Positions 57,638-62,935 of a stretch of DNA of 64,000 bases are shown piece by piece. Each line of letters starts with the position of its first letter. Positions within the stretch are counted from its first letter, which is position 1. The notes beneath the pieces were generated by a model that saw nothing but the letters and a program-made list of their open reading frames with translations, was not told the origin of the DNA and did no database searches. Origin of the DNA: Planctomycetota bacterium (GTDB lineage: Bacteria > Planctomycetota > UBA1135 > UBA2386); the NCBI GenBank assembly GCA_046290465.1, contig JBKAGP010000001.1:5856001-5920000 (forward strand), given 5' to 3'. The translations under genes were made by a program, and so were the position numbers.

Positions 57638-57829
57638 GAACTGACCACTTGGCTGTTGGTGGCCGCGGCGACCGTGGAAGGTTGCTCGCGACTCTGGTCC
57701 GCAATTCGTGAGGAACCGCCGGGCTTGGCCCTCCGGAACCGCCGTAACGCCAGAACATGGCCTTGCCGGCGGCTCTGGGGGCCGTGGCTGCCTTGTTGCG
57801 CGGCGGACCAACAGCCAAGTGATCAGTTC
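57638..57829. mobile_element. MITE/REPIN-like non-autonomous element (192 bp)
   Basis: 23-bp inverted repeats (1 mismatch) at 57638-57660 and 57807-57829; same core as the ends of the element at 60070-61250. Confidence 0.8.
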
Positions 57830-58318: not shown

Positions 58319-58417
58319 GGGAGTGCATCCGAGCTGGTGTTCGGCCTGGTCTTCAAAACCTGTGGGGTCCTTCCTAGAGAGGGGCTCGGTGGGTTCGATT
58401 CCCATGCATTCCCGCCA
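58319..58417 (+). tRNA. selC: tRNA-Sec (anticodon UCA)
   Basis: 8-bp acceptor stem, 5-bp T stem with TTCGATT loop, 6-bp D stem with 4-nt loop, loop CTTCAAA, long variable arm, GCCA end. Confidence 0.95.
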
Positions 58418-59298: not shown

Positions 59299-60066
59299 AT
59301 GATCGCGTTTGCCCTCGTCGGTCTCCTCCTCGTGTCGTCGCCCGCGTTCGCGCAGGGCAAAGGCCAGCAGTCGGGTCAGAAGTCCAGCCAGCAGGATGCG
59401 TCGAGCAAGAAGCTCGAAACCTGGCCGGACAAGCTCGCCAAGCAGAAGGTCAAGGCGTTCCAGAAGGCGCTGAAGGCGAAGAAGGTCAGCATGGCCGACC
59501 GCAAGCGCGCCTTGACCGAGCTGAAGGGCGGTATCAGCACGCACCTGGTCAAACCACTGGCGAAGTTCATCGAGACCGACAGCTCGATCGTGCTGAAGCG
59601 CGAGGCCGTCGAGATGCTCGGCGACCAGACCGGCAAGCGGACCAAGAAGGCGGTGCTCGACCTGCTCGGCAACGCCCGCGTCACCGGGAATCCGCAGGTG
59701 CACGCAGGCTTGATCCGGGCCCTCGGCCGGTCCGACTACACGTCCAAGGACTGGAAGGAGATCGCCGACGTATTCGAGTCCGACTACGACACCGAGCGCG
59801 TGCCGGTGCACGAGGCGATCCTCGAGCTCGTCCGGCGGCACAAGGAGAAGCAGGCGATCCCGTTGTTGCTCAACAACATGGATGAGCCGAGCGCCAAGAA
59901 CGTCGACGCCGCCGACAACCCGCCGGCCGAGTACTGGAAGGCCCGGTGGCATTCCTGGGCCGCTTGGAAGACCAAGGTCAAGGAGGCCATGAAGGCGATC
60001 ACGGGCCAGGACTTTGGCAGCGCCAAGGAAGCCAGGGCCTGGCTGAAGAAGAACCCCCTCAAGTAG
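59299..60066 (+). CDS. Secreted helical (HEAT-like) basic protein
   Basis: Signal peptide ending AFAQ; strong codon bias; AITGQDFG..W motif. Confidence 0.75.
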   Translation: MIAFALVGLLLVSSPAFAQGKGQQSGQKSSQQDASSKKLETWPDKLAKQKVKAFQKALKAKKVSMADRKRALTELKGGISTHLVKPLAKFIETDSSIVLKREAVEMLGDQTGKRTKKAVLDLLGNARVTGNPQVHAGLIRALGRSDYTSKDWKEIADVFESDYDTERVPVHEAILELVRRHKEKQAIPLLLNNMDEPSAKNVDAADNPPAEYWKARWHSWAAWKTKVKEAMKAITGQDFGSAKEARAWLKKNPLK

Positions 60067-60069
60067 GAC

Positions 60070-61250
60070 CTGATCACTTGGCTGTTGGTGCCCTCGCGCG
60101 AGTGGCACCAAGAGGCGCACATTGGTCCGCATTCAAACCGATCGCGCCCCGCTCAGGCTCATCGGATGGATGCTGCGCGGACCCCAGTCCTGCTGCCAGC
60201 GCAGCACCTCGACCGACCGCAGCCGGCGCGGCAGCAACCCGAGCACGACCGCGGACGCCAGCATCGGATGGTCGCGGTTGAATCGCTTGCGCACGTAGTT
60301 GCGGTAGACGGCGAACAGGTCGAGCTGCGCCTTGAGCCAGCGCGCGGCCTTGGACACCAGCCACGACTTGCGCCGCAGGCGGCCGCAGTTGTCGCGCGAC
60401 ATCGCGATCGTCGCGTTGATCGGGAACAGCGGGTTGCGGATCGTGCGCGCCTCGGTGCCGGCCGTGGTCGTGTGGGTGGCGCGGTCGCCGAACACCTTCT
60501 TGCACGACCTCGCGTAACTCGCCTTCTTGTCGGTGTGTAGCCCGAGCCGTCCGGTGCACCGCCGGTCGAGCTCGCGCAGCACGCCTTCGACGCACTCGCG
60601 GCTGCGGTCGGGCCGGCGGCCGTGCTGCTGTTCGTGGGCGTCTTGCCATGCCCGCCGGGTCGTGCCGCGTCGGGCGAGCCGGCGGATCGGCGCCGTGTCG
60701 GCTGCGACCAGGAACCACGACTTCCGCTCGATCAGGATCGGCACCGTCAGGGTGCGGATCGACGAGCCTTCGTCACGTCTCCTCCTCGTCGAGCACGTAG
60801 TCGCCGCCCGACGGCAGGCGCTGCGAGAGGTTGCGGTGCAGGCCCGCGCAGGTGCGGGCGATCTTGCGCATCTTGCGCTGCACCCCGGAGCACGACAGCT
60901 CGAGCAGGCGCCCCGCCTGGCGCAGGCCGATGCCGCTCGTCAGCAGGTCGAACAGGCGGGCGTTGGTAGCGGGCCTGCGGTCGCGGTAGTCGTGACGGAA
61001 CGTCTGGCGTGAGAACGTTCTACGGCAGGCGGGGCAGCGATAGCGCTGCTCTGGCGCGGTGCGGCAGGCGGCGCGGAACGAGCCCCATCGGGCGAATCGC
61101 CGGGGCGGGGTGGTGAAGGCGGAGCAGTCCTGGTGCGGACAACGGGGTGGCTCGAAGGTCATGCGGTGTCGTGGCGATGCGCCACGACACTGGGGCCCGC
61201 GTTCGCTGGCGGTGGCAGCGAATCCGCGGGACCAACAGCCAGGTGATCAG
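60070..61250 (-). mobile_element. IS1-like insertion sequence (1181 bp)
   Basis: 20-bp inverted repeats CTGATCACTTGGCTGTTGGT (60070-60089) and ACCAACAGCCAGGTGATCAG (61231-61250) flank the transposase; no target duplication visible. Confidence 0.8.
60133..61162 (-). pseudogene. IS1-like transposase (Zn ribbon-HTH-RNase H fold) split by a 1-nt frameshift
   Basis: CPHQDC...RYRCPACRRTF, HTH, VLDEEET*, then EGSS...LHTDKKASY...GRLRRKSW in the next frame; removing one base (TGAC to TAC) restores 342 aa. Confidence 0.8.
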
Positions 61251-61255
61251 TTGCC

Positions 61256-62935
61256 TCAGTGGACGTGGATGTGGCGGCCGCCGTTCTCCTCGGCCAACGG
61301 CTTCAGGAACGCCGTGTCGTTCTGGTCCCCGAACGTGATGCAGTGGATCGCGATCTTGCGCAGGTTGTTGGCTTCGCGAACGCGCTTCCGGATCTCTTCC
61401 TTGTCGGTGACCGGGCCGGCGGTCGGCGCGCCGTCGGTGATCACGTAGAGGGTGTCGAAGCCGGCGGCGTAGTACTTGTCGTAGAGGCCGCGACCGCCGA
61501 AGCCGAGCGCGGCCTCGAGCGCGTCGTAGAGGTTGGTCGGTCCCTGTGGCCGCAGGCCGTCGAGGAAGTTGCCGAGCAGGTCGTCGCGCGCCTCGTCGTC
61601 GAGTTCGACCAGCGCCGGCCGCTTGCCCTCGGCGCGCCAGATGCGCACGTCCTCGCTGAACACGACGAAGTTGCAGAGGGCGCCGTCGGGCAGCGACATG
61701 ACCAGCTTCTTCAGCTCGGCGACGACGAGCCTGGCCTTGGTCGTCTTGGTGCCGGCGCCGCCGACGGCGGTGGTGCCGGTGGGCTTGATCTCGGCCGGTT
61801 CGGCCATCGAGCCGGAGAAGTCGAGCACGAACAGTACGCGGTCCGACTCGATGGTGAGGTCGAAGAACTTGTCGTAGCGGTTGTCCTGCTGCGGCTCTTC
61901 GCCGGGCTTCGGCTTCGGCCGCACCTGGAAGCTCGCGCCCTCCTGCTTCCAGAACGCCTTCCACGGCGCGATGCCGCCGCGCACGACGCTCTGGCCGGTG
62001 AGCCCTTCGAGCAGCTTGTGCAGCCGGACGTCCATCGCCCACGGGTCCTTCTTGCGCTTCAGTTCGGCGTCCAGGCCCGCGATCAGCGCCGGGATCACGT
62101 CCTTGCAGCGCAGGTTGGCCAGCGAGAACGCGGCGGCGCTGCGAACCTGCCAGACCTTGTCGCGCTTCAATAGCGCGCCGAGCTTCTTGATCACCTGGTC
62201 GCGCTGCTGTCGCAGCTCGCCGGTCGGGTCCTTGCCCTCGGTCTCGTCGACGTGCGGTCGCATCGCCGAACCGATCGCGTTGCAGGCGGCGATGCGCACG
62301 TTGGGCTCGCGGTCCTTGAGCAGGTCGATCAGGGTCGGCACCAGATCGAGCTCGGCGTCCTTGGCCATCGCGTTGACGGCGTGCACGCGCAGCTCGTTCG
62401 GCATCGAGCCGCAGGCGCGCATCAGTTCGAGCTTGGCCTCGAGGCTCGGGTGGCCGGCGAGCACCTTGAGCACGACGACCGCGTGGCGCTGGTCGTCGTT
62501 CTCCTCGCTGGCGCGGATGCTCTTGGCGCGCAGCTTCTTCAGCAGCCAGGGCAGGATGCTCGGCTCCCGCATCGAGCGCAGGTGCCGCTGCGCCATCGCG
62601 CGCACGCGCCACGGCTGCACTTCGCGCTGGAACGCGACCGCCTCGGTCGGGTTGCCCGGCATGACCGGCTGCACGGTGGCGACCTCGAACAGCAGCCTGG
62701 CGTCGACGAACGTGTTGCGGCTCGCGACTGCCGCCATCAGGCGATCGGCGTCGTCGACGACCGTGCGGTCGGTCAACCCGTCCTTCTGAAAGCGCACCGC
62801 GCCCGCCTTGTAGTCGACCAGCCAGGCGCGCAGTTCGGCGCCCGGGTCCTGGCTGGCGAGTGCCTGGCTACCGCCGTCCGCGGCGGCGAGCGTCGCGGCC
62901 AACAGGATCGGAACGAGCGGCAGCGTGCGCTTCAT
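61256..62935 (-). CDS. Secreted HEAT-repeat plus vWA domain protein
   Basis: Signal peptide; LLKDREPNVRIAACNAIG and WQVRSAAAFSL HEAT repeats; DFSGSM, TNLYDAL and TDG MIDAS. Confidence 0.88.
   Translation of the reverse strand: MKRTLPLVPILLAATLAAADGGSQALASQDPGAELRAWLVDYKAGAVRFQKDGLTDRTVVDDADRLMAAVASRNTFVDARLLFEVATVQPVMPGNPTEAVAFQREVQPWRVRAMAQRHLRSMREPSILPWLLKKLRAKSIRASEENDDQRHAVVVLKVLAGHPSLEAKLELMRACGSMPNELRVHAVNAMAKDAELDLVPTLIDLLKDREPNVRIAACNAIGSAMRPHVDETEGKDPTGELRQQRDQVIKKLGALLKRDKVWQVRSAAAFSLANLRCKDVIPALIAGLDAELKRKKDPWAMDVRLHKLLEGLTGQSVVRGGIAPWKAFWKQEGASFQVRPKPKPGEEPQQDNRYDKFFDLTIESDRVLFVLDFSGSMAEPAEIKPTGTTAVGGAGTKTTKARLVVAELKKLVMSLPDGALCNFVVFSEDVRIWRAEGKRPALVELDDEARDDLLGNFLDGLRPQGPTNLYDALEAALGFGGRGLYDKYYAAGFDTLYVITDGAPTAGPVTDKEEIRKRVREANNLRKIAIHCITFGDQNDTAFLKPLAEENGGRHIHVH

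Follow-up and report, generated by a model that had tools for sequence, protein, structure and literature searches.

IS1 is 768 bp long, its ends start with GG, and its 232-aa transposase, with a zinc finger, a helix–turn–helix (HTH) region and an RNase-H core in that order, is encoded by insA and insB through a programmed −1 frameshift. Some subgroups of the IS1595 family have Asn as the third residue of the catalytic triad. A different arrangement is that of the RAYT/REPIN systems, in which a HUH/Y1 enzyme, usually single-copy and vertically inherited, is paired with short non-autonomous intergenic repeats. Target duplications of 8–9 bp are described for IS1 in the available part of PMC12903888, and a single open reading frame (ORF), an N-terminal zinc finger and 8–9-bp duplications are described for IS1595/Merlin elements in the available part of PMC8101967.

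Here we analysed a 64,000-nt stretch of planctomycetal DNA (the window), for which an earlier note, made from the sequence alone, had described an atypical IS1-like element. We consider it likely that this element is a frameshifted copy of a mobile, IS1-related family that current family models do not capture and that is accompanied by MITEs. The family resembles IS1 in the order of its three domains, in the alignment of both Asp motifs and of a downstream R..RL.RK...SK motif, and in the 9-bp duplications of relatives, and its tblastn matches on plasmids are IS1 transposases. It differs from IS1 in that Asn replaces the catalytic Glu and, at D+3, Glu replaces the conserved Trp; strand 3 is followed by 24 inserted residues, the C terminus is extended (342 versus 232 aa), and a single 342-aa ORF takes the place of insA/insB. 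The element is approximately 1.2 kb long, with ends reading N-GAA-CTG. With IS1595/Merlin it shares the single ORF, the N-terminal zinc finger and duplications within the same size range, but its duplication is usually 9 bp and the motif after its third catalytic residue is IS1-like. The RNase-H core also resembles those of IS256-family ISCth4, IS21-family IstA and retroviral integrases (Z 11–14 over approximately 150 residues), although at 8–15% identity this is a likeness of fold only. With RAYT/REPIN systems the family has in common a transposase paired with short intergenic repeats and one long-lived syntenic copy under purifying selection; it differs in its integrase fold, terminal inverted repeats, several copies per genome and 9-bp duplications.

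Profile searches agreed with the earlier proposal of an unclassified IS1-like family. A Pfam search of the transposase returned nothing significant, and the NCBIfam IS1 model (NF033558) matched residues 37–133 only, with 33.2 bits against a cut-off of 100; the NCBIfam IS1/IS1595 Zn match was likewise below its cut-off. Among 70 aligned homologues, 63 matched the NCBIfam IS1 model weakly (best E 2.9e-12), none was recognized at E 0.01 by PF03400 or by Pfam's catalytic-domain model for IS1595, and one matched the NCBIfam IS1595 model (E 0.0013). The nearest named ESM Atlas cluster (score 0.94) has PF03400, DDE_Tnp_IS1, in 79% of its members, and the 30 nearest clusters have neither a common Pfam family nor names. 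The family departs from IS1 in its triad, model score and gene organization, and from IS1595 in its catalytic domain. Homologues of the transposase numbered at least 928 clustered proteins, or 1,130 representatives at 50% identity (both at E 0.001), and the database homologues with names were from Planctomycetota. In the host's own taxonomic family, 42 of 72 genomes contained such elements, as did, patchily, 6 of 12 congeners; phylum-wide they occurred in 8 of 251 genomes, all from the host's order, with more distant relatives in Pseudobacteriovorax.

The element and its copies in the host genome

Repeats and copy comparison place the element at 60070..61250 (minus strand) between conserved CTG/CAG cores. 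It carries 23-bp inverted repeats that are 91% complementary, one upstream (61228..61250, minus strand) and one downstream (60070..60092, plus strand) of the transposase gene. The earlier note had the ends start CTGATCAC, but relatives with a visible duplication have ends 4 nt further out, and by comparison with them the whole IS probably spans 60066..61254 (minus strand), 4 nt beyond the CTG. It was also said to fit exactly between two stop codons. This proved inexact, because the CTG/CAG repeats lie 3 and 5 nt from the stop codons of two convergent genes; with the longer ends, the left end shares 1 nt with a TAG and the right end leaves a gap of 1 nt. The left gene (59299..60066, plus strand) has its stop codon abutting the IS, and the right gene (61256..62935, minus strand) encodes a 559-aa protein that by eye has the appearance of HEAT repeats and a vWA domain and is present in 14 of 14 congeners. 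We dropped the position flush against convergent genes as a special feature, since the available part of PMC13548323 reports the same for most IS families.

The transposase of the window copy lies in two frames, not the single frame of the earlier description. The 5′ frame (60773..61162, minus strand) encodes the Cys4 zinc ribbon, the HTH and Asp125 (codon 60788–60790) and stops early, whereas the 3′ frame (60133..60772, minus strand) encodes the remainder of the RNase-H core, with the codons of Asp211 (60529–60531) and Asn249 (60415–60417), and a C-terminal extension. An extra base at 60774 (minus strand), missing from the other three genomic copies, brings a stop right after the DEEET motif and so separates the zinc-ribbon/HTH half from the catalytic half. 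Because this base is private to one copy, the break is not an IS1-type frameshift organization. Contigs of four other sequencing runs all lack the base, but they collapse the copies, so it may be either a true mutation or an artefact of assembly. As described, the window copy contains D(EEET), (HT)D(KKASY) and INATIAMSR. Searches of the IS and MITE against Rfam gave no match, and the search for promoter or terminator consensus sequences found none.

The host assembly (6.59 Mb, 70% GC) holds four full copies of the IS, at C1:1-1177, C1:123781-124959, C1:6110739-6111918 and in the window. They are dispersed and 98.0–98.7% identical to one another, which answers in favour of near-identity the earlier question of whether paralogues are near-identical or divergent and syntenic. 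An intact 342-aa ORF is present in the copies at C1:123781 (at C1:123868-124893) and C1:6110739, and the other two are broken. The assembly starts exactly at the repeat of the copy at C1:1-1177, which has four single-base deletions, suggesting long-read errors at a contig end. An internally deleted, one-ended IS remnant lies at C1:4360878-4361000.

Seven MITEs of 186–196 bp in the genome share the repeats of the IS. One of them lies in the window at 57641..57826 (186 bp, strand not assigned) and corresponds to the companion element of 192 bp in the earlier note. Their repeat cores are conserved, and their interiors are 85–94% alike or less. An eighth, a 96-bp mini-MITE with both repeats, is found at C1:5852084-5852179. 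We rejected a REPIN-like hairpin: the folding of a complete MITE scores z −7.7, whereas once the repeats are taken away just one of seven interiors falls below z −2, the pairing coming mostly from the terminal repeats. Neighbouring genes at C1:6110739, 1294337, 5961490, L319 and L239 end on a TGA inside the repeat, so that the IS or MITE supplies their stop codon. At L153:800-1300 and L178, a duplicated unit of approximately 280 bp stands beside a 120-bp MITE, in an intergenic region that measures approximately 95 bp in the host genome. The window also contains a selenocysteine tRNA gene at 58319–58413 (plus strand; 72.8 bits against a gathering score of 47).

In two of the other runs, X19 and X2, contigs extend from the window flanks into the IS at the same place, and those of X19 run across the window MITE too. 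The X19 flank, from a strain approximately 2% diverged, differs from the host at 99 of 5,078 bases. Ratios of read depth point to about 2.5 copies in X2 and 4.5 in X19. No empty allele from the same species was seen over C1:5911000-5924000 in the four runs, for which 15 of 57 joints were listed. Repeat-pattern scans yielded 38 genome and 51 metagenome stretches, of which none encoded the transposase or came from the host species and three held short MITEs. In congeners the IS site was empty in 12 of 12 that could be measured, out of 14, and the host gene pair there is separated stop to stop by 14–83 bp, compared with at most 8 bp here.

An Asp-Asp-Asn transposase

The AlphaFold2 model of the transposase (pLDDT 95.7) comprises HTH helices at residues 64–112 and a core with the integrase/RNase-H fold, in which strand 1 carries D125, D211 follows strand 4 and N249 opens helix 246–258. 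MMTV integrase (Z 14.3, rmsd 3.1, 152 residues aligned) and IstA (Z 12.9, rmsd 3.2, 152 aligned) matched the core, and the top Foldseek match of the model was ISCth4; no solved structure matching the transposase by sequence was found. The zinc-ribbon residues C8, C13, C43 and C46 are near-invariant in an alignment of 267 proteins.

Comparison with four IS1 InsB sequences by hhalign gave a probability of 86.7 and E 4.4e-6, with both Asp motifs and the R..RL.RK...SK motif lined up. As hhalign opens a short gap just before IER, we paired N249 by counting back from the shared downstream motif, and by this count it falls on the catalytic Glu of the IS1 IER motif. Among sequences of the 267-protein alignment with a residue at this position, Asn was found in 118 of the 119 close homologues and in 105 of the 115 distant ones, and Glu was not among the five commonest residues. 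The third residue is also Asn in 108 of 110 loci. The possible D-D-N triad that had been noticed in a single sequence is therefore real and family-wide (223 of 234 homologues).

Two glutamates next to the first Asp are kept with similar constancy: E128, in the position where IS1 has Trp, in 118 of 119 close and 112 of 129 distant proteins, and E131 in 116 of 119 and 118 of 130. Either E128 or E131 may supply the third carboxylate. A rewired active site, in which a glutamate relocated to strand 1 complements the Asp-Asp-Asn residues, we regard as about as likely as not. Three proteins of a distant branch (P0254, P0264 and P0269) have DG for DE after the first Asp, with the third position still Asn, and His residues in the helix that follows the triad.

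Target duplications and their probable loss

We scanned 111 loci outwards from the conserved CTG anchor, dropped 19 that had no confident repeat and kept 92 elements, of which 4 belong to the host genome and 88 to others; a few of the anchors kept are probably wrong. Duplications of 9 bp (8–9 of 9 positions matching between 9-mers 4 nt outside the CTG) flanked 17 of the 92, and none of 18,455 shuffled cross-genome pairs reached 8 of 9. The carriers were 8 of 21 elements in G015 and 6 of 11 in G033, with a single one in each of G011, G020 and G081. All 17 have D125, E128, E131, D211 and N249, indicating that the Asn enzyme makes duplications of IS1 size. A missing duplication is thus not a trait of the family, as the note had supposed; of the features that it took to speak against its reading, 8–9-bp duplications were found in relatives, and the canonical DDE triad was not, Asn standing in place of the Glu. 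The ends of family elements read N-GAA-CTG, N-GATA-CTG or GGACT-CTG. In G011, a member of the host's genus, MITEs whose end 4-mers are non-GAA like those of the host are flanked by duplications (8/9, 8/9 and 7/9) outside the 4-mers.

Most elements (71 of 92) match at 5 or fewer of the 9 duplication positions. At the window copy the absence of a flanking direct repeat stood up to inspection, the 9-mers at the family's duplication position matching in 3 of 9, and across the host genome duplications were found at 0 of 11 elements (mean match 2.7 of 9; gapped score 3.7 against a null of 3.4). The most probable cause is that they eroded afterwards. Decay, recombination between copies and adjacent deletion are documented ways of losing a duplication in the available part of PMC11708052. 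Three observations are consistent with these causes: five informative sites among the four host copies support all three possible splits; the host gene gap is shorter than in congeners; and a stop codon starts 5–10 nt outside 53 of 142 duplication-less ends, the count in a control window being 18 of 142 (when each genome contributes one element, 22 of 68 compared with 9). The near-perfect repeat cores do not fit easily with simple decay. As a trace of recombination we looked for cross-matching 8–9-mer flanks between copies and found none in the host genome, G033 or G058; in G015 there was a single 7/9 match. In another genome, G329 (L369–L376), eight copies have conserved ends that often lie directly against TAG or TGA triplets, and none of the eight has an exact duplication of 7 bp or more.

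From these data, a course of events can be proposed. The transposase would bind the repeat core, cut 4 nt outside it and join the ends to the target with a 9-bp stagger, probably replicatively as in IS1. D125 and D211 would bind the metals, Asn249 would add a weak third ligand, and the missing carboxylate would come from one of the two conserved β1 glutamates, E128 or E131. Intact copies would move the MITEs in trans. The insertions in the host genome may be older than their approximately 98.5% identity suggests, with recombination between copies homogenizing the interior while adjacent deletions and drift would erase the duplications and diversify the outermost 4 nt, so that in the end the termini come to lie against neighbouring stop codons.

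Alternative readings and significance

A different account of the host elements is that their lineage has its own chemistry, in which the ends are the CTG/CAG and blunt insertion into a loose palindrome (S-A-R then Y-T-S) leaves no duplication, as with the eukaryotic Spy elements. The uniform lack of duplications at the 11 host elements agrees with it, as does the sharp fall of conservation outside the CTG, where position −1 is A in 14 of 22 ends, −2 is A in 18 of 22 and −3 is G or C in all 22, and the last 4 nt vary far more than the 98.5%-identical interiors. Exact removal of the copy at C1:6110739 between CTG and CAG gives an EF-G-like gene an in-frame stop again, seven codons beyond its last conserved residues and at about the position of the stop in orthologues, which the 4-nt model does not; at C1:5961296, with flanks taken by inspection, exact removal restores a stop too, although a restored frame has a one-in-three chance per site. 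Against blunt insertion, the bases outside the CTG are similar to the N-GAA termini of relatives, congeners have the same outer 4-mers with 9-bp duplications beyond them, and a MITE pair of 94% identity has four of five outer bases in common at both ends, so that these bases travel with the element. Duplication-less copies, moreover, are the majority even in genomes with perfect duplications. We keep a blunt-inserting lineage as a reading because of the unexchanged flanks, the variable outer 4 nt and the restored stop at C1:6110739, but think it very doubtful. The other question is one of naming, as the family could be an ordinary member of a described subgroup (IS1 of the ISMhu11 type, or an IS1595 subgroup with D-D-N) that is too divergent for the public models. 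The weak but widespread NCBIfam IS1 matches, the PF03400-rich Atlas cluster and duplications of the size that IS1 itself makes all fit such a member; the IS1 score far below its cut-off over part of the protein, the near absence of matches to the catalytic-domain models and the nearest Atlas clusters without a common Pfam family do not, and the IS1595 motif, as given in the available part of PMC12561309, differs after the third residue where the IS1 motif aligns. No description of the family was found in a literature survey that covered, ISfinder apart, mainly listings and abstracts outside subscription journals, so that the family may have an existing name, a reading that we hold to be unlikely.

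Partial domestication is the third possibility, in which copies stay put and transposase and repeats are retained for a role in the host, such as local rearrangement or the spreading of MITE hairpins at gene 3′ ends, as a functional analogue of RAYT/REPIN. The earlier idea of such a system is not borne out by synteny at the window site, which is empty in all measurable congeners; domestication may apply to some copies. In two species (G009, L303:4392-5597, and G002, L304:4348-5562), an intact, duplication-less IS lies at the same junction between convergent genes; the two transposases are 87% identical (dS 0.52, dN/dS 0.15), close to four neighbouring genes (84–90% identical, dS 0.43–0.72, dN/dS 0.12–0.21). 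Singleton changes are mostly synonymous, with 15 synonymous and 8 nonsynonymous in G033 and 47/13 and 104/48 in G015, where approximately 26% of sites are synonymous; the two intact host copies differ by 7.5 synonymous and 3.5 nonsynonymous changes (p ~0.01), and dN/dS among the pairs of paralogues listed for G015 and G058 was 0.06–0.28. The window IS and MITE are common to the diverged strain, and MITE repeat cores are conserved while the interiors diverge. Purifying selection on private changes together with the syntenic pair is more than plain selfish decay predicts. On the other side, that pair is the only clear vertical one among 110 loci, the distribution is patchy, copy numbers reach 11 and 21 in single genomes with perfect duplications, and two of the four host copies are broken. 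In G033, 50 of 78 site pairs are incompatible, as expected of conversion from active copies, and the available part of PMC12428005 reports that IS1 transposase acts in cis; conversion and cis action can explain the selection signal without benefit to the host.

A junction after a TPR gene near fliD-fliS-fliT-like genes (L316–L349) carries an IS of the family in five genomes. Deep synteny at this flagellar cluster was rejected as proof of domestication, because the four IS tested are not one clade (AU p 3e-6, from 38 rows and a quick tree without a mixture model, 21 of 59 rows being left out). The site was occupied by the IS in 2 of 30 loci fetched regardless of IS and by varied genes elsewhere, and such varied, non-monophyletic occupancy indicates an insertion hot spot. 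At L323 the junction holds an unrelated gene with the look of an Rpn-type transposase. The proposal that the window element belongs to a RAYT/REPIN analogue does not hold, given the integrase/RNase-H fold, near-identical and dispersed paralogues, a site empty in every measurable congener and mostly unstructured MITE interiors. We conclude that the IS family is mobile and not a RAYT/REPIN system, and that partial domestication of some copies is improbable, if conceivable. Equally improbable, in our estimate, is the fuller picture of an IS1-related family with a rewired site, some copies of which were captured by the host and kept working in place between convergent genes across speciation with MITE partners, as a DDE-type counterpart of RAYT/REPIN; its upkeep by the host is the weaker half of this picture.

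A catalytic Asp-to-Asn change has been read as the end of mobility, for example in PGBD3 (available part of PMC3459987), and replacement of a triad Asp or Glu by Asn is usually taken for inactivation. Here a whole family with Asn still leaves 9-bp strand-transfer footprints, and the ways in which two-metal catalysis may be reconstructed can be examined in this natural case. The analysis also puts a name to mobile elements overlooked by annotation, which comprise at least 928 clustered proteins and reach 21 copies in one genome. The purifying selection on private changes and the one stationary pair make it a tractable case of either the upkeep of a selfish transposase or its domestication.
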